A stretch of 39,014 nt of DNA. Source: a virus (taxonomy: Duplodnaviria > Heunggongvirae > Uroviricota > Caudoviricetes). The position numbers were made by a program, and so were the translations under genes. Positions 29,667 to 39,014 of this stretch are shown piece after piece (position 1 is the first letter of the stretch; every line of letters begins with the position of its first letter). The stretch is taken from the IMG/VR virus record IMGVR_UViG_2671180460_000015; one strand, written 5' to 3'. The notes beneath the pieces were generated by a model that had not been told where the DNA came from, did no database searches, and saw only the letters and a program-made list of their open reading frames with translations.

Positions 29667-29860
29667 GCTTCACCTCCGCAGAGGCCAAACGCTGGATGCA
29701 AAAAATCGCAGGTGCATTTCTGCATCTGTGAATGGAGAAGATAGGTTGGTTTGTATGTGCGCATAAACGTCCCCGTTTAGCGCAGAAGTCACCGGAGTTG
29801 TTCAGGCTCCAATGGCATGATTATGGCTGGTTGATTATTGGAAATCAAATGTGCTGAAAA

Positions 29861-30370
29861 TTAGTCTGCCAAGTCTTCCTCAGTCGCAACTGGGTAATTC
29901 CAAATATCAAAAAAAGCTATAGCCTCCTGCCATTTGCTCCATAAGTTATCAAGTACTTGTGTAGGTTCCGTACTTTTAAAAACAGAATCAGCCGCATCAC
30001 CGTTATGAACTTCCTCGTACAGTTCCATTATTAGCAGATTAACAAAGTACTGTTTCAACATTAATGCCTGATTACCTTCTTTCTGCTGGCTATCCTGCTT
30101 GATGATCTCCATCGCCCGTACTAGGCACCTGATGATATCCGCTGCATCATTAACGCTCCATTCAGATCCGCGCTTATCTTTAGCTGATGAATTGGCTCTC
30201 TCAGCGCAAGCCTTTAAAGACTCATAAAGGTAAACTCTATTTTGTAGCTGCAGCGCTTTTTTTGACGTGTACCAACTTGCAAGCGCCGACCCCGCTGCGG
30301 CTAATGTGCCAAACGCAGAAATACCTGCTGCTATTGCACTTAAGTCGGCACTGTCAAAGTTCCACATCAT
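29861..30370 (-). CDS. hypothetical 169-aa protein with one N-terminal hydrophobic helix; accessory gene of unknown function
   Basis: ORF in an AT-rich stretch; N-terminal DLSAIAAGISAFGTLAAAGSALASWY is a likely transmembrane segment; no lambda or DLP12 counterpart recognised. Confidence 0.6.
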   Translation of the reverse strand: MMWNFDSADLSAIAAGISAFGTLAAAGSALASWYTSKKALQLQNRVYLYESLKACAERANSSAKDKRGSEWSVNDAADIIRCLVRAMEIIKQDSQQKEGNQALMLKQYFVNLLIMELYEEVHNGDAADSVFKSTEPTQVLDNLWSKWQEAIAFFDIWNYPVATEEDLAD

Positions 30371-31039: not shown

Positions 31040-32566
31040 TCAAAAATAAACCTCACCATCAACCATATATTTGAGAGTACTTATCGCCTGCTGGGCGGAT
31101 ATTGTTTTCATTAAAGGATAGTGTTTAAAAACAATGCCATTCATAAAATAGATATCACAGGTTTTATTATCTGTATTGATTATGATTTTTTCGAATGTTT
31201 TATAGGCAAGTGTACGACATAGCTCTCGCCCATTTTTACTGGTTAAGTCAATAGCATGAAAATCACCAAGTGAACTCACCGCTTTACTCTTCAAAGTTTT
31301 TAATGATACAGAAGCCCTTCGTAATTCCTTATCTAATACTCTGATTTTTTCTGCTATAGCGGTAACTTCAGGCGCAACAGATAATGCAGCAATTAAATTA
31401 TTAATTTTCATCTGGAGCTCAATAATTTTCAACTCTAAAGTTTCATTAGCATCTTTCTTGTTTTCAACTGGTTGGATTTTACTACAATTAAAAAGCAACT
31501 CATTAATGATATTATAATCAACCAAATCTCTCTTTATTGATGGCCTGTCACATCGATGCAGTCTTCTCATCGGACAAACATAATAGCCATGCAAACTTCC
31601 AGATACCGCATGAACAATCATGGTATTACCACAAGCCTCGCACTTCATAACTGTTCGAAGTAGATTTATCAACATAGGATTTTTGCTACTATTGCTAATA
31701 CCAAAAGGTGCCAACCGAATTTCCTGCACAGCGTAAAACAAATCATCTGATATGACTCTGGGATAATAGCCAGCGATTTCACTTATTCCTTTACCTCTTG
31801 CACGATATGAAGGTACGCATATACCTATCAGAGCTTTATTCGCTAATAATTTTTCAATTACAGAAGGTCCCCATGCACTTTCTTTTCCTGAGAAATTCTT
31901 TACAGCATGATCATTTAAATACTTGGCTATTGCATTCAATGAGCGCCTTTCCATCCTGAGTTTAAAAATTAGCTCAATAGTTTTCACCCTGTCGGGGTCT
32001 GGAACAAAAGCCGTTCTTTTGTCATCCAATGAGAGCCATCTCGGACAAGACGCCGTCATAATCGTGCCTGACTCCAGTGCATCCTGCCGTTTTTTCTTCC
32101 ATGATAATTTAACCCGACTTGACTTTATCTCGCTTTCTTCATTTGCCCTTTGTGCTATAAGTATGGCTTTTATTAATGAATATGGCTCATTCAATGAGTC
32201 AATATTATAGACTGTATTATCGCAAAGAGTTATAACATCAATACCGTGATTCAAAATCAATTTCAGACGCTCAATCGCTTCACCGACTTTTTCTCTTGAA
32301 AGTCTGTCCAGACTTTCAACTAACAATGTAGTCCCTGGCAATATATAACCATGTTCTATAGCATCTAAAAATTCCGAAAAAGCTCCTGATTGTGCATGCT
32401 TTCCATTGAATGCGCTTAACCCCAAATCTTCATACGTTACGGTATCAAGGTAATAATCACTATTTACCTTTAGCCATTCAGTAATAAGCCTTCTCTGGCG
32501 GTTTAATGAATCACCAGACATCTGACCTGGTGATGAAAATCGCATATATGCTATGGCTTTTTTCAT
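31040..32566 (-). CDS. ybcK: large serine recombinase (resolvase/invertase-type N-terminal catalytic domain), YbcK-like
   Basis: 508 aa; N-terminus MKKAIAYMRFSSPGQMSGDSLNRQRRL... has the serine-recombinase catalytic motif (YxRxS...R); same length and context (next to emrE) as DLP12 ybcK. Confidence 0.85.
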   Translation of the reverse strand: MKKAIAYMRFSSPGQMSGDSLNRQRRLITEWLKVNSDYYLDTVTYEDLGLSAFNGKHAQSGAFSEFLDAIEHGYILPGTTLLVESLDRLSREKVGEAIERLKLILNHGIDVITLCDNTVYNIDSLNEPYSLIKAILIAQRANEESEIKSSRVKLSWKKKRQDALESGTIMTASCPRWLSLDDKRTAFVPDPDRVKTIELIFKLRMERRSLNAIAKYLNDHAVKNFSGKESAWGPSVIEKLLANKALIGICVPSYRARGKGISEIAGYYPRVISDDLFYAVQEIRLAPFGISNSSKNPMLINLLRTVMKCEACGNTMIVHAVSGSLHGYYVCPMRRLHRCDRPSIKRDLVDYNIINELLFNCSKIQPVENKKDANETLELKIIELQMKINNLIAALSVAPEVTAIAEKIRVLDKELRRASVSLKTLKSKAVSSLGDFHAIDLTSKNGRELCRTLAYKTFEKIIINTDNKTCDIYFMNGIVFKHYPLMKTISAQQAISTLKYMVDGEVYF

Positions 32567-32821
32567 GGTGACACCTGCTAAAGTATGCTTTTATAAACCT
32601 TAGTGGTGAGATATGATTTTTGTTTAATTTTTATTTAAAAAGACAATTAAGGTCACATTATCTTGAATATACAACAATAATCGTATTGCAATTTTCTTAC
32701 ACCATAATCTTGAAAGCACAAAAGAATGAATAAAAACTAAAGACATTAACAAAAAGCATAAAACGAGGCCCATATAAATATACGAACCTCCATATTTTAG
32801 TCGTTTAAAAACAAATTATTT

Positions 32822-33154
32822 TTAATGTGGTGTGCTTCGTGACAATAAATTAATAACCAACACACCGGCACAAATCAACATCATGCCTATAATGGCTGGC
32901 AGGTCCAACCGTTGGCCGAAAAATCCCCATGATAGTAAGCTAATCAGGACAATACCGACTCCTGACCAGATAGCATAAGCAATCCCTGTAGGAATATAAG
33001 CCAGCGTCTGAGCTAATAACCAGAATGATGCACAATAACAAATAATTGTACCAACAGATGGCCATAACCGTGTAAAACCTTCTGAAAACTTCATTAAGGT
33101 TGTACCAATGACCTCTGCAAGTATTGCACCACCAAGATAAATATAAGGATTCAT
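32822..33154 (-). CDS. emrE: small multidrug resistance efflux transporter EmrE (SMR family)
   Basis: MNPYIYLGGAILAEVIGTTLMKFSEGFTRLWPSVGTIICYCASFWLLAQTLAYIPTGIAYAIWSGVGIVLISLLSWGFFGQRLDLPAIIGMMLICAGVL.INLLSRSTPH, 110 aa; start trimmed from 33208. Confidence 0.95.
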   Translation of the reverse strand: MNPYIYLGGAILAEVIGTTLMKFSEGFTRLWPSVGTIICYCASFWLLAQTLAYIPTGIAYAIWSGVGIVLISLLSWGFFGQRLDLPAIIGMMLICAGVLVINLLSRSTPH

Positions 33155-33221
33155 AGCATATTCTTTCCTGTTCAAACTGGAGAGAATTGTACTACAGTTT
33201 GAACTCAACTCACCTGTTTCA

Positions 33222-33524
33222 TCATTGTGTACCCATTGATGTTCTTTTATATACCCTCAATACCCGTTTCATCGCGGCACTCTGGCGACACTCCTTAAAA
33301 ATCAAATTCGTGCTCACCTTTCCTTCCCATTCTTCTCTGGTAGCGAACCGATAATACACCGTTCGCCAGACCTTACCATCAACGACCAGGATTCCTGCCC
33401 GCGCCATTTTAGCCGCAGCCTGATTTATGCTGGTTACCGTTGCGCCTGTTACCGCGGCAACGTCCTGCGCACAGAATTTCTTATGAGTCCCCAGGTAATG
33501 AATAATTGCCTCTTTGCCCGTCAT
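33222..33524 (-). CDS. ren: Ren (Rex-exclusion escape protein)
   Basis: MTGKEAIIHYLGTHKKFCAQDVAAVTGATVTSINQAAAKMARAGILVVDGKVWRTVYYRFATREEWEG...; matches lambda Ren. Confidence 0.9.
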   Translation of the reverse strand: MTGKEAIIHYLGTHKKFCAQDVAAVTGATVTSINQAAAKMARAGILVVDGKVWRTVYYRFATREEWEGKVSTNLIFKECRQSAAMKRVLRVYKRTSMGTQ

Positions 33525-34222
33525 ACCCTTGCTCCTTTCAGCCCAAACTTAGCTTTGATTTCTGCGATCTTCGCCAGAGCCTGTGCACGATTTAGAGGTC
33601 TACCGCCCATGACAGGAAGTTGTTTTACTGGTTCAGGTATAGCCTCACCACGGTTAATTCGTGCGGTCATACAGGACAGTTCATCGGCAGCCTTGCGCCG
33701 TAATTCCGCGTCAGTCAACGCATTGGCCCGCATGTTCTGATACAGGTTGGTAACCAGCCAGTAGTGCGCGTTTGATTTCCACGGATAAGACTCTGCATCC
33801 GGATACAGCCCGCGCTTCCGGCAATACTCGTAAACCATATCAACCAGCTCGCTGGCGTTTGGCAGCCCAGCGGTAACGGATGCTTCTTCCCGGCACCAGG
33901 CGACAAACTGCCCGGGTGATGGCAGGAATGGTCGATTCTGCCGACGGGCTACGCGCATTCCAGCGTTAACCTGTTCCATTGTGGTGATCCCGTTTTCCCG
34001 GAAAGCCAGAACCCACTGGCGGCGGATTTCGTTCAGTTCATTCTGGTCACGGTTAGCCAGGCTCGCCGGGAAAGTTGCCAGTAACTGGCTGAACACACCG
34101 TTGATGATCTGCGCTACCTGCTGTACCTGTGGCTTTTCGTCGTACTGTTCCGGCATGTTGTTGGCGATCCGGCGCATCTGCTCACAGTCAAAGTTAACCA
34201 TCTGTGCGGCGATGTTTTTCAT
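33521..34222 (-). CDS. P: replication protein P (DnaB helicase loader)
   Basis: 233 aa, MKNIAAQMVNFDCEQMRRIANNMPEQYDEKPQVQQVAQIINGVFSQLLATF...; near-identical to lambda P. Confidence 0.95.
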   Translation of the reverse strand: MKNIAAQMVNFDCEQMRRIANNMPEQYDEKPQVQQVAQIINGVFSQLLATFPASLANRDQNELNEIRRQWVLAFRENGITTMEQVNAGMRVARRQNRPFLPSPGQFVAWCREEASVTAGLPNASELVDMVYEYCRKRGLYPDAESYPWKSNAHYWLVTNLYQNMRANALTDAELRRKAADELSCMTARINRGEAIPEPVKQLPVMGGRPLNRAQALAKIAEIKAKFGLKGARV

Positions 34223-35148
34223 AGCTCCACCCCGTAAATCCAGTCAGTGTTCGTCAGGTCGAGTTTTGGTTTGCCGGCTGTCACGCCAGCCTGTTGCTTG
34301 TTTCGGTTGATTTCGAGCTGGGTCCACTTGTCGCGGAGTTTGGCCGGACTTAGCACGTTACCGGACCAGAAGTTGTCCTGGCATGCCCAGCGGAACAGCA
34401 CGCACATGTCGCGGTGGTTACGTCCGTCACGTTCACGCATCAGGCGGATATCGTTAGCCCACCCTGCAAAATTCGGTTTTCTGGCTGATGGCGCGATGGT
34501 CTTCACCATGTCAAACATCCACTCTGCGGCGGTCAGGTCTTCTGCTGTCCCCCACTTGCTGCCGCTCTGAATTGCAGCATCCGGTTTCACCACAGGAAGA
34601 TCGTTTTCTGGTTGGTCAGAGGATTCGCCAGAATTCTCGGACGAAAAAGGTTTTATATTGTCTTTTGTTAGTTTGTCTTTTGTGTTTACCTGATTCGGGT
34701 AAACGCCTTTACCTGATTTGGGTAAACTTTTTTTACCTGATTCAGGTAAATTTACCTCTTTCAGGTAAACTTTATTTTTCTTACCTGATTCGGGTAATGT
34801 TGACCATTCACTGACCACATTATTAATGCCGATATTCCGCCCGCTCTGAATAAGAATCCCACGCTTTACCAGAACACTTTTTGCAGCAGAACACTTATGC
34901 GGCAATATCCCGGTCAATTCGGAAAGTTGCTCGTTGCTCACCCAATCCAGTTTTTTATTAAAGCCATATGTTTTGCGCATGACAGCCAGGAAGACCAGAA
35001 GCTGGTGCTGTGTTAATCCGGCCAGCATCACAGCTTCCAGCAACTCATTTGCAATGCGCGTATAACCATCATCGAGATCTGCCACGCGCGGCTCCTTTTG
35101 TGCCGCATCCGGCACTGGAAAATTGAATATCTCAGCAGTGTTTGCCAT
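34219..35148 (-). CDS. O: replication initiator O
   Basis: From MANTAEIFNFPV...RVADLDDGY the N-terminus aligns with lambda O; contains the ori iterons. The ORF is open upstream to 35238, where an ATG overlaps the stop of the preceding gene (alternative coupled start). Confidence 0.85.
   Translation of the reverse strand: MANTAEIFNFPVPDAAQKEPRVADLDDGYTRIANELLEAVMLAGLTQHQLLVFLAVMRKTYGFNKKLDWVSNEQLSELTGILPHKCSAAKSVLVKRGILIQSGRNIGINNVVSEWSTLPESGKKNKVYLKEVNLPESGKKSLPKSGKGVYPNQVNTKDKLTKDNIKPFSSENSGESSDQPENDLPVVKPDAAIQSGSKWGTAEDLTAAEWMFDMVKTIAPSARKPNFAGWANDIRLMRERDGRNHRDMCVLFRWACQDNFWSGNVLSPAKLRDKWTQLEINRNKQQAGVTAGKPKLDLTNTDWIYGVEL
34686..34799. repeat. replication origin iterons inside O: five copies of about 18 bp, TACCTGATTCGGGTAAAC-like
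   Basis: Direct repeats tacctgattcgggtaaac, tacctgatttgggtaaac, tacctgattcaggtaaat, tacctctttcaggtaaac, tacctgattcgggtaatg, flanked by an AT-rich tract; encodes the LPESGKK-type linker of O. Confidence 0.8.
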
Positions 35149-35234
35149 AATTCCTCCCGCAATGAGTGCGTTACGATTTGCACCTGAAAGTCGGTTCTGT
35201 TCCAGCAGACCGGCTTTCGCCATTTCTGAACCAG

Positions 35235-35780
35235 TCATATTGCCCCCAGCATGGTGGTGACCATCGCCATCAATGGACCAGCCAGATCCGGGTCCACACG
35301 AAACATCGACACAATGCCTTCACTCATCTCCTTCAGTTTCTGGTGGCGTGGCGCGTTGAGAATGACAGCCTGTTTTGCTTCACTGAGTTCCTTTTCCATT
35401 TCAGCCAGCCGAGCCATGAAGCTATCCTGCTCAACCAGGTGGCCGCGATAGTCCAGCGGTAGTACCGCCAGAATTGCCGGGGTCAGTTCACGCACGTTAT
35501 TTCGGTATTTTTCAGAATCGAATTTGTTATCGAGGAAGCGGAACAGCTTCTGGCGTGCACGGCTGACATCATCAGGGAAATCGATGGTGCCGCCGCCCTG
35601 CTCCCGATACTCATTCACAATGAGTGCGGCAACAACATCCTGATTATCTGCAGCCGACCAGGCGCGGACGGCATCACGGATTTTTTCGTGGCCTGGAGCT
35701 TGTTTTGTTTGAGAACGATTTATCACCGCAGTCGGGCTAAATCCGCTAGTCTGTTGGTATGTAAGTGGTTGCATAGTCAT
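35235..35780 (-). CDS. early regulatory protein at the cII position (possibly a YdaT-like CII analog)
   Basis: 181-aa ORF between cro-like and O on the pR-transcribed strand; does not resemble lambda CII (97 aa). Family assignment is inference from position and vague recall. Confidence 0.6.
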   Translation of the reverse strand: MTMQPLTYQQTSGFSPTAVINRSQTKQAPGHEKIRDAVRAWSAADNQDVVAALIVNEYREQGGGTIDFPDDVSRARQKLFRFLDNKFDSEKYRNNVRELTPAILAVLPLDYRGHLVEQDSFMARLAEMEKELSEAKQAVILNAPRHQKLKEMSEGIVSMFRVDPDLAGPLMAMVTTMLGAI

Positions 35781-35804
35781 TGCCTTATCAGTTAACGCCG
35801 CAGA

Positions 35805-36032
35805 TTAGGCGGCAGAATTACTCGCGTTAAACAATGGTGCGAGGTCGGGACGAATATCTGCTGGTTTAATCTTTCCACCAGTGGCTGAGACAATTTTCAT
35901 TACATAGCGGGCATCAATTCCGCCACCGTGTAGCCAACGCCAAACAGTGGGCTGGGCTACACCGCATAGATCTGCCAGTCGTTTTTGACTACCTGTAATA
36001 CTGATTGCGAGTTGAATGGTTTGATTTGTCAT
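35805..36032 (-). CDS. cro: Cro-like HTH repressor (Cro/YdaS type)
   Basis: 75 aa; helix-turn-helix QKRLADLCGVAQPTVWRW; divergent from cI across an operator region. Confidence 0.8.
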   Translation of the reverse strand: MTNQTIQLAISITGSQKRLADLCGVAQPTVWRWLHGGGIDARYVMKIVSATGGKIKPADIRPDLAPLFNASNSAA

Positions 36033-36142
36033 TATTAATTCCTATTGGTATTACAATGAATAAATAATAGCAATACGTATTAATCATAACAATAGCAAAA
36101 CGTGTTTTGACCATCAATACGCAAGCGTATAAATTAAAACTT
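36033..36142. promoter_or_regulatory. OR region with divergent pR and pRM candidates and AATAGCAA operator motifs
   Basis: Minus-strand pR candidate: -35 TTGTTA (36092-36087), 17-bp spacer, -10 TATTAT (36069-36064). Plus-strand pRM candidate: TTGACC (36107-36112) and TATAAA (36128-36133), placing the start at or near the cI ATG (leaderless, as in lambda). Operator motifs at 36066-36075 and 36091-36100. Confidence 0.6.
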
Positions 36143-36835
36143 ATGAAAAAAGAAACTCTTGCTGATCGCTTAAACCTAGCGATGGAACAATCTGGAATGT
36201 CTCAAGGCGCTCTTGCAAAGGCGTCTGGCGTAGCTCAACCCACAATCTGGAGACTGACAAGCGGCAACGCGCGCGGCTCAACAAAAATTGTTGAAATAGC
36301 TAATGCATTGGGTGTTCGAACAGAGTGGCTCTCATCAGGCATAGGCCCGATGAGAAATGACGGTCAACAATTAGGGAAGCCTACTGCCAACCATCCCAAA
36401 TACTTCAAGATTGACGTTCTTGATATAGAAGTGAGTGCCGGGCCGGGAGTCATCAACCGTGAGTTTGTAGAAGTTCTACGCTCGGTTGAGTACTCGTTTG
36501 ACGATGCTCGTCACATGTTCGATGGTAGGAAGGCAGAAAATATCCGCATCATTAACGTACGCGGTGACAGCATGTCAGGAACGATTGAACCTGGTGATCT
36601 TCTATTCGTTGATATCACGGTTAAATCTTTCGACGGTGATGGTATCTATGCGTTTCTGTACGACGACACAGCCCATGTAAAGCGCCTGCAAATGATGAAG
36701 GATAAGCTGCTGGTTATCTCTGATAACAAAAGCTACTCACCGTGGGACCCGATCGAGAAAGATGAGATGAACCGGGTATTTATCTTCGGGAAAGTTATTG
36801 GGAGCATGCCGCAGACGTATAGGAAGCATGGATAG
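36143..36835 (+). CDS. cI: CI-like prophage repressor (N-terminal HTH plus C-terminal LexA/S24 self-cleavage domain)
   Basis: MKKETLADRLNLAMEQSGMSQGALAKASGVAQPTIWRL... HTH; C-terminal region with GDSMSGTI (S24 peptidase Ser motif) and the catalytic Lys region. The ORF-track TTG start at 36107 is probably spurious. Confidence 0.9.
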   Translation: MKKETLADRLNLAMEQSGMSQGALAKASGVAQPTIWRLTSGNARGSTKIVEIANALGVRTEWLSSGIGPMRNDGQQLGKPTANHPKYFKIDVLDIEVSAGPGVINREFVEVLRSVEYSFDDARHMFDGRKAENIRIINVRGDSMSGTIEPGDLLFVDITVKSFDGDGIYAFLYDDTAHVKRLQMMKDKLLVISDNKSYSPWDPIEKDEMNRVFIFGKVIGSMPQTYRKHG

Positions 36836-36915
36836 TACCAATTAAAAATTATCAACCGGGCATTGTGCTCATTCAGTAAAACAACTTAATTATTCATTTT
36901 AGAATGGAGAACTTA

Positions 36916-37977
36916 ATGGATACTTTAAAATATGAGAAATTCTCTGATTTTGATCACAATGACCCATTTTTTGACTCTTTAAAAAAAGATTATAAAGAGT
37001 TTCCTCTTTGGTTAGAAAAAAAAGCCAGAGAAGGAGAATCAGCTTATGTGCTCTATGATGACAAGCATAAAATCGAAGGTTTTATGTATCTAAAAGAAAA
37101 TGATGATGCAAATGACATTAATCCAGCGCTCCCACCAGGACGTCATCTAAAGATAGGAACATTCAAATTTGAATCTAAAGGCACCCTTCGCGGACAACGA
37201 TTTCTAAAAAAAGCGTTTGACCATGCATTTTCATCAAAATCTGATGATATTTATGTTACTGTTTTCGACAAACACGTCCATCTAATAAAACTTTTCCAAA
37301 CGTACGGATTTTACATTCATGGTGAAAAAGAAACACATAACGGGAAAGAGTTTGTATATGCGAGGTCTTTGCATGAGCCTTATGGTGATATTTTATTAGA
37401 TTACCCTCGAATAATGACATCAAGGGCCAACAAATATTTACTGGCGATTTATCCCGAATATCACACTAGACTATTCCCTGATTCAAAACTTGTAAATGAA
37501 TCACCAGATATTGTCAAAGATATATCCCATGCTAACAGCATTCATAAAATTTACATATGTGGAATGCGTTCTGTGATGGGAATGAAAAGAGGAGATATCA
37601 TTGTCATCTATAGAACCGGAGACAAAAAAGGGCCAGCTCGCTATCGTTCTGTAGCCAGTACATTATGTGTAGTTGAGAGCGTAAAAAATATTTCTGAATT
37701 TTTAAGCGAAGATAGTTTTGTAGACTATTGTATTCGTTTTAGCGTATTTTCTGAAGATGAACTCAGAAAAATCTATAAAGAACGTCGATACCCTTTCATT
37801 ATAAGATTCACATACAATCTGTCTTTGCCAAAGAGACCCAATCGTGCTATTTTAATAGATCATGTGGGGCTAAATGGTTCGCGTGCATTCCGATGGAGTC
37901 ACTTTAAACTCACAAATGAGCAGTTCTTAAAGATCATCGAGTTAGGCAAGATAAATGAAAGTTTTATTATCCATTAA
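36916..37977 (+). CDS. hypothetical 353-aa protein, first gene of the immunity-region accessory operon (rexA position)
   Basis: ORF 36904-37977; GGAG at 36906-36909 sits 6 nt before the second ATG (36916). Strongly AT-rich. No lambda homolog recognised; tentative GNAT-like N-terminal half and PUA-like C-terminal half from motif inspection only. Confidence 0.75.
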   Translation: MDTLKYEKFSDFDHNDPFFDSLKKDYKEFPLWLEKKAREGESAYVLYDDKHKIEGFMYLKENDDANDINPALPPGRHLKIGTFKFESKGTLRGQRFLKKAFDHAFSSKSDDIYVTVFDKHVHLIKLFQTYGFYIHGEKETHNGKEFVYARSLHEPYGDILLDYPRIMTSRANKYLLAIYPEYHTRLFPDSKLVNESPDIVKDISHANSIHKIYICGMRSVMGMKRGDIIVIYRTGDKKGPARYRSVASTLCVVESVKNISEFLSEDSFVDYCIRFSVFSEDELRKIYKERRYPFIIRFTYNLSLPKRPNRAILIDHVGLNGSRAFRWSHFKLTNEQFLKIIELGKINESFIIH

Positions 37978-38332
37978 GCCTGAGTTTGCAGAAAAAATAT
38001 TGAACGGAACAAAGCGGTTCGAGTTTCGTAAAGGTATATTCAAAAATCCGCAAATTAGCACCGTTGTTATTTATGCCACGATGCCATTAGGTAAAGTTGT
38101 TGGTCAATTCCGTATTGAATCAATACTAAGTGACGAACCGGAATCTCTTTGGAAAAAGACGGAAAAACACGCAGGTATTTCTAAGCAATTTTATGACTCA
38201 TATTATTCAGGTAGAGAAAAGGCCTACGCAATAAAAATTGGTGAAGTGGAAAGATATAAAGAACCAATTCCTATCTCTGCTCTAGGTAGTAATATTAAGC
38301 CACCACAATCATATCTTTACCTACCTGCGTAA
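37955..38332 (+). CDS. ASCH/PUA-like domain protein (125 aa), second gene of the immunity-region accessory operon (rexB position)
   Basis: MKVLLSIKPEFAEKILNGTKRFEFRKG... carries the ASCH G-x-K-x-x-E-x-R signature; start overlaps the upstream gene by 23 nt; AT-rich. Confidence 0.75.
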   Translation: MKVLLSIKPEFAEKILNGTKRFEFRKGIFKNPQISTVVIYATMPLGKVVGQFRIESILSDEPESLWKKTEKHAGISKQFYDSYYSGREKAYAIKIGEVERYKEPIPISALGSNIKPPQSYLYLPA

Positions 38333-38336
38333 GAAT

Positions 38337-38363
38337 CCCGGCCACCGTGCCGGGTTTTCTTTT
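38337..38363 (+). terminator. rho-independent terminator ending the cI-distal accessory operon
   Basis: CCCGGC-caccgt-GCCGGG hairpin followed by TTTTCTTTT, 5 nt after the stop codon. Confidence 0.7.
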
Positions 38364-38444
38364 GTCCCCTCATCACACAAACCGTTCGAAAAACCACCAC
38401 ATCCTCCCTTCAGTTATCGCTATGCGATGCAAGTCACAAAATTA

Positions 38445-38535
38445 ATTCTTTTTGCTATCAAACAGTTAATATCAAAACACATTAATCAATAGCAATAAGT
38501 ATTGATACAGCCAATAGCAATAGCTATTATCACCA
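38445..38535 (+). promoter_or_regulatory. OL/pL region: near-consensus sigma-70 promoter with AATAGCAA operator motifs
   Basis: -35 TTGATA (38502-38507), 17-bp spacer, -10 TATTAT (38525-38530) on the + strand. Operator motif aatagcaata at 38488-38497 and 38513-38522, and inverted (tttgctatc) at 38451-38460. Confidence 0.6.
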
Positions 38536-38603
38536 TGTCGCAACAACACAACGATACGGCAATCACCTGATTCACCGTTGCGATGACCGCTTAGATCCGC
38601 AGC

Positions 38604-39014
38604 TTGAATTTCAGCAGGCTCCGGGGAGTGCGAGGGGTGAAGCGGACGCGTGAACGTCGGTGTGACCAGCTGAAATCAACTCAACACTTCATACCTCAGT
38701 CGCTTCAACGAGGCGGCTTAGTTATGACAACCGGCGGCCATCCACCGCCTGAATACGCGCAGAAGTCTCTATATGTTCAGCAGCCCAGCTTACGGGCAGG
38801 AGTTTTTATGGTTCATCAACATTACGGAACGCAGACCGTTAATCGAGGTGCGGTCATGCCAGGAATGCTGGTCAAACACAAAGATGGTACCTGGACTGCA
38901 TCAGCTAATTTACGCGGACGGCTTTATCTGCATCGCGGCATCGAGCGCACTTATACCCGTGATTTGCTCGTGGAAGTTTTTCTCGACGGACGCGGTAACG
39001 GCCTGAATCACTAA
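38604..39014 (+). CDS. hypothetical early protein at the N position (first gene downstream of the candidate pL); start uncertain
   Basis: Open frame from a TTG at 38604; alternative starts are a GTG at 38634 and the ATG at 38722. An Arg-rich stretch KRTRERR near the N-terminus loosely resembles the lambda N arginine-rich motif, but the rest is unlike N. Confidence 0.4.
   Translation: MNFSRLRGVRGVKRTRERRCDQLKSTQHFIPQSLQRGGLVMTTGGHPPPEYAQKSLYVQQPSLRAGVFMVHQHYGTQTVNRGAVMPGMLVKHKDGTWTASANLRGRLYLHRGIERTYTRDLLVEVFLDGRGNGLNH

Follow-up and report, generated by a model that had tools for sequence, protein, structure and literature searches.

The window, that is, the whole 39,014-nucleotide stretch of phage DNA analysed here, carries the genes and regulatory regions of a candidate genetic switch in the order P-O-cII-cro, OR, cI-cargo-terminator and OL-pL (Table 1). 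The cI and cro genes are divergent and flank an intergenic gap of 110 bp, CII is a YdaT-family protein, and no N gene is found downstream of pL in the window. The two cargo genes lie outside the switch proper, although they are located between OR and OL. They match PDC-M11A (2e-133) and PDC-M11B (7e-52) in PADLOC and correspond to GevT/GevA by the labels of PV340567, a pair on which our literature search returned nothing relevant. Among phages that share the immunity, the cargo is swapped for other genes, as in Perceval, where the immunity and OL are kept and the cargo is different. The terminator hairpin is also found in both PhiR47_2 and Perceval.

Table 1. Features of the switch region in window coordinates
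Feature	Position	Strand	Description
cro	35805..36032	-	75 aa, YdaS/Cro-family HTH, recognition segment GVAQPTVWRW
Operator-like palindrome in cro leader	36037..36052		AATTCCTATTGGTATT, halves AATTCC/AATACC, overlaps cro Shine-Dalgarno
pR	36064..36092	-	-35 TTGTTA (36092-36087), 17-nt spacer, -10 TATTAT (36069-36064), TG-extended
OR1	36066..36081		AATAGCAATACGTATT, half-sites AATAGC + AATACG, overlaps pR -10
OR2	36091..36106		AATAGCAAAACGTGTT, half-sites AATAGC + AACACG, overlaps pR -35, adjoins pRM -35
pRM (candidate)	36107..36135	+	-35 TTGACC, 17-nt spacer, -10 TAAATT
OR3	36116..36131		AATACGCAAGCGTATA, two weak halves AATACG + TATACG, within pRM spacer and -10
cI repressor	36143..36835	+	230 aa, 434-like HTH_3 N-terminal domain and S24 autocleavage domain
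Two cargo genes in rexAB position	36904..38332	+	357 aa and 125-aa ASCH protein, co-oriented with cI
Intrinsic terminator	38337..38364	+	6 G-C pairs and T run, closes cI-cargo operon ahead of OL
Distal OL site	38444..38459		minus strand GATAGCAAAAAGAATT, contains inverted copy, PWM 16.4
Weak OL3-like site	38468..38483		AATATCAAAACACATT, PWM 13.3
OL2	38488..38503		AATAGCAATAAGTATT, overlaps first two bases of pL -35, PWM 25.9
pL	38502..38530	+	TTGATA-17-TATTAT, 10/12 matches, rightward into Kil-like ORF
OL1	38513..38528		AATAGCAATAGCTATT, 14/16 symmetric, two strong halves, in pL spacer and -10

Against Pfam, cI matches Peptidase_S24 (1.3e-18) and HTH_3 (1.8e-6). The alignment of its N-terminal domain with the 434 repressor is gapless (E 1e-5) and places the recognition helix, Q32-P-T-I-W-R37, in helix 3. 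The autocleavage signature is present as SAGPG, GDSM and VKRLQ, each aligned with its counterpart in HK022 cI, and the Ala-Gly site together with the Ser/Lys dyad in the C-terminal domain makes cI a candidate for RecA-stimulated autocleavage. Cro is matched by YdaS_toxin PF15943 (E 9.6e-15, above the family cut-off) and weakly by P22_Cro, and its nearest PDB chains are 5w8y (engineered XPH1, E 8e-4) and 3bd1 (deposited as 'Cro protein', E 1.2e-3), consistent with membership of the Cro/YdaS family. The initial annotation had pointed to similar recognition segments in the two proteins and, indeed, GVAQPTIWRL of cI and GVAQPTVWRW of Cro are both found, within HTH regions that align at 32% identity (E 4e-9).

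The same annotation had proposed an 8-10-mer, AATAGCAA(T/A)A, as the operator motif. The motif recurs in OR and OL exactly where it had been placed, as AATAGCAATA at 36066-36075, 38488-38497 and 38513-38522 and as AATAGCAAAA at 36091-36100, but it comprises merely one half of a longer element. The full operator unit is a 16-bp pseudo-palindrome, AATAGCAAnnnGTATT, composed of strong (AATAGC) and weak (AATACG) half-sites, and its ideal form, AATAGCAATTGCTATT, is a perfect palindrome seen in relatives. The elements of the initial interpretation all hold, with the AATAGCAA repeat as the strong half of predicted 16-bp repressor/Cro sites. The inverted copy reported in OL at 38451-38460 is a minus-strand 7-mer, ATAGCAA (38452-38458), which does not reach the full 8-mer and forms part of the distal OL site. 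The repeat units span 17-19 nt and are spaced by 25 bp in OR and OL alike. The symmetry axis (8|9) is set by the perfect palindromes of relatives and by the occurrence of strong half-sites in either orientation. Alternative axes on the internal palindromes AATACGTATT of OR1 and CAAAAC-GT-GTTTTG of OR2 were rejected, as the two are offset from one another by 1 bp and the perfect palindromes of relatives lie on the 8|9 axis. A further match found in many loci, ATAGCTA at cI +153, was read as codons of the conserved ...EIANAL... peptide and was not counted as an operator.

In a PWM scan of the 39 kb, the four best matches are the four proposed strong sites. The window contains five occurrences of AATAGCAA, where 1.28 are expected. 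This count is reached in 2 of 100 shuffles, and the enrichment over a shuffled background that had been put forward as a check is thus present, if modest. Four of the five copies fall within two intergenic blocks of ~100 bp that flank cI, both of which are AT-rich (25-26% GC). Recurrence as a chance product of such low-complexity DNA would be in keeping with this weak window-wide enrichment and with the 7-mer, which is not enriched in the window (7 found, 5.3 expected). Yet in dinucleotide-preserving shuffles of the two blocks alone, any 8-mer occurs four times in 36 of 5,000 cases, and at least twice in each block in only 17 of 5,000. Local p values are about 0.003-0.007 and the window-wide value is 0.02, which makes the window moderately significant when taken alone. 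What effectively refutes the chance explanation is that the sites are found again, at the same spacing, in every one of the 30 other OR sequences, from many genera, with diverging spacers; given these comparative data, we regard a chance origin of the repeats as untenable and its probability as negligible.

Within OR, OR1 is the best PWM match of the window (26.6) and is conserved at 1.88 bits per column, compared to 1.57 for OR2. The two sites cover the hexamers of pR, in agreement with the earlier proposal that the OR motifs overlap the -35 and -10 of a minus-strand TTGTTA-17-TATTAT promoter, and the -10 is preceded by TG. Transcription from pR is predicted to start near 36057 and to drive cro-cII-O-P, and the columns of its -10 are near-invariant among 31 related OR sequences (majority fraction 0.99). 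Exactly 25 bp past OR2 lies OR3, which the initial annotation had not listed, as is the case for the OL3-like and cro-leader sites. OR3 is conserved at 1.70 bits per column (31 sequences), whereas the spacers on either side of it reach 0.84 and 0.56. The hexamers of the candidate pRM, which encloses OR3, show majority fractions of 0.90 and 0.98 in the same sequences. The end of the pRM -10 and the cI ATG are separated by 7 nt, a distance kept in 30 of the 31 sequences, so that the cI mRNA is predicted to be leaderless or nearly so, as originally suggested; inspection by eye revealed no Shine-Dalgarno sequence upstream of the ATG.

The operator-like palindrome in the cro leader scores 17.7 in the PWM scan and is conserved at 1.46 bits per column, compared to 0.57 in the adjacent gap. 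Its equivalents in other immunity types are built from the half-site of their own type, and we consider it a possible fourth OR site. A promoter scan of the window overall found 8 promoters compared to 8.2 expected in shuffles; in the absence of enrichment, the promoter calls rest on position and conservation.

On the OL side, the motif lies within the spacer of a rightward TTGATA-17-TATTAT promoter, as the initial annotation had it. OL1, located there, scores 24.4 on the plus strand and 16.0 on the minus strand and is the sole pair of 6+6 half-sites in the window. The -10 of pL is retained by most relatives and its predicted start is at about 38535-38537, such that an immunity-specific cassette of 95 bp ends at the predicted +1. 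At the other end, the distal OL site starts one base within this cassette, and this element is also conserved in OL of many relatives. The OL3-like position is occupied in several relatives (e.g. L021 and L022) by the perfect palindrome AATAGCAATTGCTATT. The exact geometry of OL is uncertain, since some relatives allow two readings of OL2, in frames offset by 6 bp. For OR3, the site in the cro leader and both distal sites of OL, the PWM scores are no better than those of a few chance matches elsewhere in the window (e.g. at 30320 and 1766), and their assignment therefore rests on position and conservation.

An E-value-mode Rfam search of positions 35700-39014 yielded sub-threshold chance matches only, and OR, OL and the pL leader thus hold no known RNA element. 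In the relative HK639, a putL-like antiterminator RNA is annotated after pL; the alignment of the window with HK639 does not extend past the first ~25 nt, and the 189-nt fold is no better than those of shuffles (z -0.64).

The four strong copies in the window share one orientation and a 25-bp phasing, and their right halves are only partly symmetric, with 4/6 matches. This arrangement would also be compatible with asymmetric direct-repeat sites, in which each AATAGCAA(T/A)A is read alone in one orientation, as by repressors of the P2 C or mycobacteriophage type. However, among relatives with an identical helix the strong half occurs on one strand or the other, as seen for OL1 of ST104 (AATACTCAATGCTATT) and OL of Yersinia (AATACGTATTGCTATT), perfect 16-bp palindromes are present in relatives, and OL1 of the window is itself symmetric at most positions. 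In addition, the N-terminal domain of cI is a 434-type HTH, for which solved complexes reveal dimers on symmetric sites. We consider direct-repeat recognition very unlikely and favour symmetric 16-bp sites bound by dimers.

To assess conservation, the OR of the window was aligned with 30 non-identical sequences, 28 from Enterobacterales genomes, one from Salmonella phage ST104 and one from a Klebsiella phage. All 30 cro-proximal sequences retain the operator sites, their spacing and the promoter hexamers, with the spacers drifting. The operators reach 1.57-1.88 bits per column and the promoter hexamers 1.56-1.97, compared to 0.56-0.94 for the spacers, figures that overstate the support because the related sequences are not phylogenetically independent. 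OR1 and OR2 start 25 bp apart in the window, as they do in 29 of the 30 relatives; the OR2 of the remaining one (L028) falls outside the search pattern. A second half-site cluster is always located 3' of cI, about 830 to 3260 bp away depending on the cargo.

The half-site also changes with the recognition helix. Wherever the locus could be read, the cI helix is AQPTIWR, which pairs with AATAGC, with the exception of the variant AATAGT in Xenorhabdus (L039); relatives with other helices have other half-sites, namely AATAAC with QPTIWK, ATAACC with QPAIQK and ACAACC with QAAIQK. The natural recombinant PhiR47_2 has the cI C-terminal domain, cargo and flanks in common with the window, whereas its cI N-terminal domain, cro and OR are replaced together with exactly the 95-bp OL cassette (window 38443-38537), and the replacement cassette is built from PhiR47_2's own half-site. 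In this recombination of modules, the operators co-segregate with the predicted repressor/Cro specificity.

This co-segregation also bears on whether the motifs could be bound by another regulator, for instance CII (YdaT-type) or a nucleoid protein of the host, or could reflect AT-rich promoter architecture with UP-like elements. The low GC content of the two blocks and the partial coincidence of the conserved sequence with the -10 and -35 hexamers would fit such an explanation, and YdaT-family proteins do bind DNA palindromes (PMC9986795), the published site being TTGATTN6AATCAA. On the other hand, the half-site follows the cI/Cro helix across lineages, it was swapped along with the cI N-terminal domain and cro in PhiR47_2, and conservation extends well beyond the hexamers, into the right half of OR1, the left half of OR2 and the core of OR3. 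The YdaT/CII site was rejected as the source of the repeats, since it is matched only at 36021-36038, with two mismatches and outside the operators. There is, in our estimation, little chance that another regulator or promoter composition accounts for the motifs, and we retain cI and Cro as the predicted ligands.

In phage lambda, cI and cro diverge around a tripartite OR, with OR1 and OR2 over pR, OR2 adjoining the pRM -35 and OR3 within pRM. OL covers pL beyond cI and rexAB, the cI mRNA is leaderless, the repressor is of the S24 autocleavage type and Cro acts on the same sites. The window likewise has divergent cI and cro genes, a tripartite OR and OL over pL beyond cI and a cargo in the rexAB slot; its cI mRNA is predicted to be leaderless, its repressor bears an S24 domain and its Cro is predicted to use the same sites. 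The operators are distinct, however, being 16 bp with an AATAGC half-site and uniformly spaced (25/25 bp), compared to 17-bp sites in lambda. Moreover, the cI N-terminal domain is 434-like, Cro is of the YdaS/all-alpha type rather than the lambda Cro type, CII belongs to the YdaT family, N is missing after pL, and the cro leader and distal OL contain additional operator-like sites. The 434 operator is a 14-bp ACAA...TTGT element and the helix residues of its repressor are QQSIEQ, whereas the window has a 16-bp AATAGC...GCTATT and QPTIWR. In both, dimers bind (in the window, by prediction) short symmetric operators whose outer bases are conserved and whose central bases vary. The HTH fold and register agree with the 434 structures (PDB 1per, 2or1, 1rpe), such that Q32 of the window cI corresponds to Gln28 of 434.

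When the region was compared with known lambdoid immunity groups, as the initial annotation had advised, HK022 proved to be of different specificity and ST104 to share helix and half-site. The window cI is 40% identical overall to that of HK022, mainly in the C-terminal cooperativity/cleavage domain, N is absent from both phages, and cI and Cro of HK022 also share a helix motif (TPKAISKW and TPKAIYKW). HK022 cI has TPKAISKW where the window has AQPTIWRL, and its operator sequence therefore differs. Extra operators are described for HK022, with OL3 located 53 bp from OL2 and one more operator lying downstream of OR at a distance of about 300 bp (PMC8053113, which cites Carlson & Little 1993 for the immunity region). 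No such distant OR site was identified in the window, which in contrast has OR3 in pRM, and OL and OR are 2.4 kb apart compared to about 700 bp in HK022 (PMC8053113).

The cI helix of ST104 is identical (GVAQPTIWRL) and its Cro helix near-identical (GVKQPTVWRW). OR2 and OR3 of ST104 are identical to those of the window, while two central positions distinguish the OR1 sites. ST104 has the same pRM and site spacing, and its OL holds the same site types. ST104 differs in its P22-like backbone and in having an N-like gene 24 after pL. Half-site and recognition helix point to ST104-type specificity for the window, whereas the cI N-terminal domains (75.5% identical) and Cro proteins (69%) fall below the 92% protein identity that the Casjens group uses as a rule for predicting the same specificity (PMC2629481). 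ST104 itself was classed as its own specificity type, not experimentally determined (PMC2629481), and our literature search found no operator characterisation for BTP1/ST104. On this comparison the immunity specificity appears to be new (ST104-like) and of a kind already known.

The region has the apparent make-up of a lambdoid immunity region, with shared pseudo-palindromic operators in OR and OL that overlap pR, pRM and pL, and a divergent HTH-S24 repressor and small Cro-type gene around a short regulatory region. Very probably, then, the locus belongs to a lambdoid prophage of the 4A7/Lambda_4C10 type and serves as its lambda-style lysis-lysogeny switch. The sequences, positions, phasing and conservation of the sites, their co-variation with the recognition helix and their exchange along with the immunity module are observed, whereas binding itself, the order of affinities, stimulation of pRM, the starts of transcription and a possible OL-OR loop are inferred. 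In a limited search of the literature, neither binding or footprint data nor transcript data were found for this switch or its close relatives. In the proposed mechanism, dimers of cI, and of Cro, would bind the 16-bp operators through the near-identical helix QPT[I/V]WR. OR1 and OR2 would control pR, from which cro, cII, O and P are predicted to be expressed, and the 25-bp phasing would suit dimers that bind cooperatively in pairs by way of their HK022-like C-terminal domain. During lysogeny, cI on OR1 and OR2 would shut pR and probably stimulate pRM, while cI on OL1 and OL2 would shut pL. The pRM mRNA would carry cI and the two cargo genes up to the terminator at 38337, and at high cI concentration OR3 would be filled, leading to autorepression. 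Upon DNA damage, self-cleavage of the S24 domain would allow pR and pL to fire, after which Cro would shut pRM from the same sites.

An extension of this scheme, which we consider possible but less likely than not, has four operators on each side, beyond the lambda paradigm, and a natural helix code in which Arg at position 37 is associated with G, and Lys with A, at the fifth base of the half-site. The site in the cro leader could act like the extra 'antivirulence' operator of HK022, or could place a roadblock on cro or subject it to translational control.

The operators, promoters and module boundaries defined for this immunity type provide a resource for annotation, and the operator definition may help to predict homoimmunity and heteroimmunity among prophages. 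In addition, the candidate defence pair PDC-M11 (GevT/GevA) is given a likely expression context, the cI operon transcribed from pRM, and the helix/operator co-variants constitute a natural set for 434-type HTH recognition. The understanding of how such switches work is unchanged. The module has already been sequenced in isolated phages, and the immunity type is present in prophages of 718 of 5,426 complete E. coli genomes (about 13%) as well as in prophages of many enterobacterial genera.

The predicted immunity region of the window is an ordinary, very common lambdoid switch; a search of the open-access literature found no paper characterising its operators. The divergent cro and cI genes are separated by a 110-bp gap containing OR, and OL lies beyond cI and two cargo genes (table). 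The initial annotation had described a short motif shared by OR and OL, an observation that is confirmed here and whose interpretation is supported and extended. All five copies lie where they had been placed, the inverted OL copy retaining just the 7-mer ATAGCAA at 38452-38458 rather than the full motif. The window contains five copies of the word AATAGCAA, where 1.28 are expected (at least five in 2 of 100 shuffles), and four of these copies fall in two blocks of ~100 bp flanking cI. When just these two blocks (25-26% GC) were subjected to dinucleotide-preserving shuffling (n=5000), any 8-mer was present four times in 36 shuffles and at least twice in each of both blocks in 17.

Features of the immunity region and adjoining genes (half-sites in the 8+8 reading; bits are means per column over 31 non-identical sequences)
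Feature	Coordinates	Strand	Details
P	33521-34222	-	ORF
O	34219-35238	-	ORF
cII-position gene	35235-35780	-	181 aa; Pfam YdaT family, E 3.6e-29
cro	35805-36032	-	75 aa; Pfam YdaS/Cro family, E 9.6e-15
Weaker PWM site	36037-36052	-	score 17.7
pR	36092-36064	-	TTGTTA-17-TATTAT; -10, 1.97 bits
OR1	36066-36081		AATAGC + AATACG; 1.88 bits
OR2	36091-36106		AATAGC + AACACG; 1.57 bits
pRM	36107-36135	+	TTGACC-17-TAAATT; -10, 1.91 bits
OR3	36116-36131		AATACG + TATACG; 1.70 bits
cI	36143 (ATG)-36835	+	230 aa; Pfam HTH_3 + Peptidase_S24 (E 1.3e-18)
Cargo ORF 1	36904-37977	+	357 aa
Cargo ORF 2	37955-38332	+	125 aa; Pfam ASCH domain
Intrinsic terminator	38337-38354 + T run		after cargo, before AT-rich block
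AT-rich block, then Kil-like ORF			3' of terminator; ORF rightward
Weaker PWM site	38444-38459	-	score 16.4; contains the inverted copy
Weaker PWM site	38468-38483		score 13.3
OL2	38488-38503		AATAGC + AATACT
pL	38502-38530	+	TTGATA-17-TATTAT
OL1	38513-38528		AATAGC + AATAGC; 14/16 symmetric

With a repeat finder the motif grows to 17-19 nt, and successive copies start 25 bp apart in OR as well as in OL. The four strong sites, with the consensus AATAGCAAnAnGTATT, are also the four best hits in the whole window for a PWM derived from them. A further operator absent from the initial annotation, OR3 (AATACGCAAGCGTATA), is located exactly 25 bp past OR2, where it sits in the pRM spacer and -10. 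A purely direct-repeat reading is ruled out, since relatives have, in their OL clusters, strong halves in both orientations as well as perfect palindromes (AATAGCAATTGCTATT), and OR1 of Fraca is likewise a perfect palindrome; the symmetry axis is thereby fixed. The gradient of half-sites fits the classical affinity order OR1 > OR2 > OR3, which we infer for the window as well. An isolated operator-like 16-mer at 30320-30335 (AATACCTGCTGCTATT, 5+6 half-site matches), inside ORF 29861-30370, is the sole strong match outside OR/OL besides 1766-1781, and is probably due to chance.

All three promoters, pL, pR and pRM, were recovered by the consensus scan; the scan of the window was not enriched over shuffles (8 found versus 8.2 expected), and these calls therefore need outside support. 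OR1 overlaps the -10 and OR2 the -35 of pR, OR2 ends directly before the -35 of pRM, and OR3 resides within pRM, while OL1 fills the spacer and -10 of pL and OL2 touches its -35. The cI ATG follows 7 nt past the end of the pRM -10, with no Shine-Dalgarno visible by eye before it, and a cI transcript from the predicted pRM start would plausibly be leaderless or near-leaderless, as had been suggested.

Relatives found by tblastn and a GTDB scan come from Salmonella (ST104, SE1, BTP1), Klebsiella, Yersinia, Kluyvera, Citrobacter, Enterobacter, Raoultella, Proteus, Providencia, Morganella, Serratia and others. Each of the 30 other OR sequences in the alignment has the same three sites, in the common order OR1, OR2, TTGAnn, OR3/TAtAAT, 7 nt, ATG, and the helices, where readable in these loci, are AQPTIWR(L/I) in cI and QP(T/S)VxRW in Cro. 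By half-site pattern search, a distance of 25 bp separates the strong halves of OR1 and OR2, both in the window and in 29 of the 30 aligned relatives; the exception, related locus L028, carries a C at a degenerate OR2 position that the pattern excludes, and its alignment holds the register. The spacers and the pRM-to-ATG stretch reach 0.56-0.94 bits per column, a contrast with the operators that is descriptive and carries no probability because the 31 sequences are related. A second half-site cluster lies downstream of cI in every long-enough locus, at a distance of ~830-3260 bp that varies with the cargo.

The weaker site at 36037-36052 forms a palindrome in the cro 5' leader with 1.46 bits per column versus 0.57 adjacent, part of which reflects its overlap with the cro Shine-Dalgarno. 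Since the cro-distal half changes with immunity type in other lineages (AACAACCTCCGTGGTT in PhiR47_2, AATTCCATTAGTTATT in Morganella locus L043), the palindrome is a probable weak fourth OR operator at ~+5 to +20 of pR. A precedent for extra operators is HK022, with OL3 53 bp from OL2 and an immunity-involved operator ~300 bp downstream of OR (PMC8053113).

The segments GVAQPTIWRL of cI and GVAQPTVWRW of Cro are indeed both present, and the two HTH regions align (E 4e-9). The cI N-terminal domain aligns with the 434 repressor without gaps, which pairs Q32 with Gln28 of 434 and R37 with Gln33; the latter lies in helix 3 and contacts bases in the solved complexes. Differing cI helices pair with differing half-sites: QPTIWK with AATAAC (L043), QPAIQK with ATAACC (HK639, PA28, Gilliamella) and QAAIQK with ACAACC (PhiR47_2); a Xenorhabdus locus (L039) with the AQPTIWRL helix has the variant AATAGTTATGTGTATT in place of AATAGC. 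Among the few lineages available, the Arg/Lys change tracks G/A at half-site position 5, which suggests a direct contact.

The switch logic is that of lambda, the HTH is 434-like and the repressor C-terminal domain resembles that of HK022, whose cI is 40% identical overall; the solved chains nearest to the YdaS/Cro-family Cro are 5w8y and 3bd1. The predicted DNA specificity matches that of phage ST104, which has an identical cI helix and identical OR2 and OR3, although identity is only 75.5% in the cI N-terminal domain and 69% in Cro. Casjens and co-workers give the ST104 repressor a specificity type of its own, listed as not experimentally determined (PMC2629481).

Isolated phages 4A7 (assigned to genus Bievrevirus in NC_049946), Lambda_4C10, D2, 1W and 3W match the 2.8-kb region at 99.9% identity, and 197 complete E. 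coli genomes carry it at 99.9-100%; considered on its own, the cro-OR-cI-NTD module is found in 718 of 5,426 complete genomes. Database annotation of the region reads 'CI-like repressor' and 'transcriptional repressor', without operators. In PhiR47_2, the C-terminal domain of cI, the cargo pair, the terminator and the OL flanks match the window (96.8% identity), but the cI N-terminal domain, cro and OR differ, and the OL of this phage is exchanged exactly between 'cacaaaat' and 'tcgcaacaac'. The OL cassette measures 95 bp in both phages (window 38443-38537; related locus L001 4568-4662), which represent two immunity types, and it runs from one base ahead of the distal OL site up to the predicted start of pL. 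A half-site of their own, ACAAC(C), is common to the OR and OL that PhiR47_2 has instead. Conversely, cI, cro, OR and OL of Perceval are the same as here, but its cargo genes are different. Thus, the operator blocks travel with DNA-binding specificity, not with their neighbours. Recombination joints lie within the cI linker (about 36380) and, because the cassette ends at the predicted pL start, precisely at operator/promoter block edges.

The cargo pair (36904-38332) sits in the rexAB slot of the pRM operon, where same-immunity phages have other cargo; it matches the PADLOC candidate defence pair PDC-M11A/B (E 2e-133, 7e-52), and GenBank PV340567 names the same genes 'GevT toxin' and 'GevA antitoxin'. 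Within 38537-39014, after pL, there is no N-like gene, the first ORF being Kil-like, and the stretch gave no Rfam hit and no significant fold; the relative HK639 has an annotated putL-like antiterminator RNA at this position, which the window resembles over the first ~25 nt only.

P and a ren-position ORF are followed downstream by a serine recombinase gene (508 aa, 31040-32566) and an ORF (32822-33208) that we take to be emrE-like, of the small multidrug-resistance type; together (31040-33208) they presumably resemble the nin-region cargo of E. coli DLP12 (emrE/ybcK). In addition, a nin-region intergenic gap contains at 29831-29848 a perfect copy (TTGATTATTGGAAATCAA) of the published YdaT-binding palindrome TTGATTN6AATCAA; because the cII-position gene of the window belongs to the YdaT family, this copy may serve as a CII-type target, for instance an anti-Q-like promoter.
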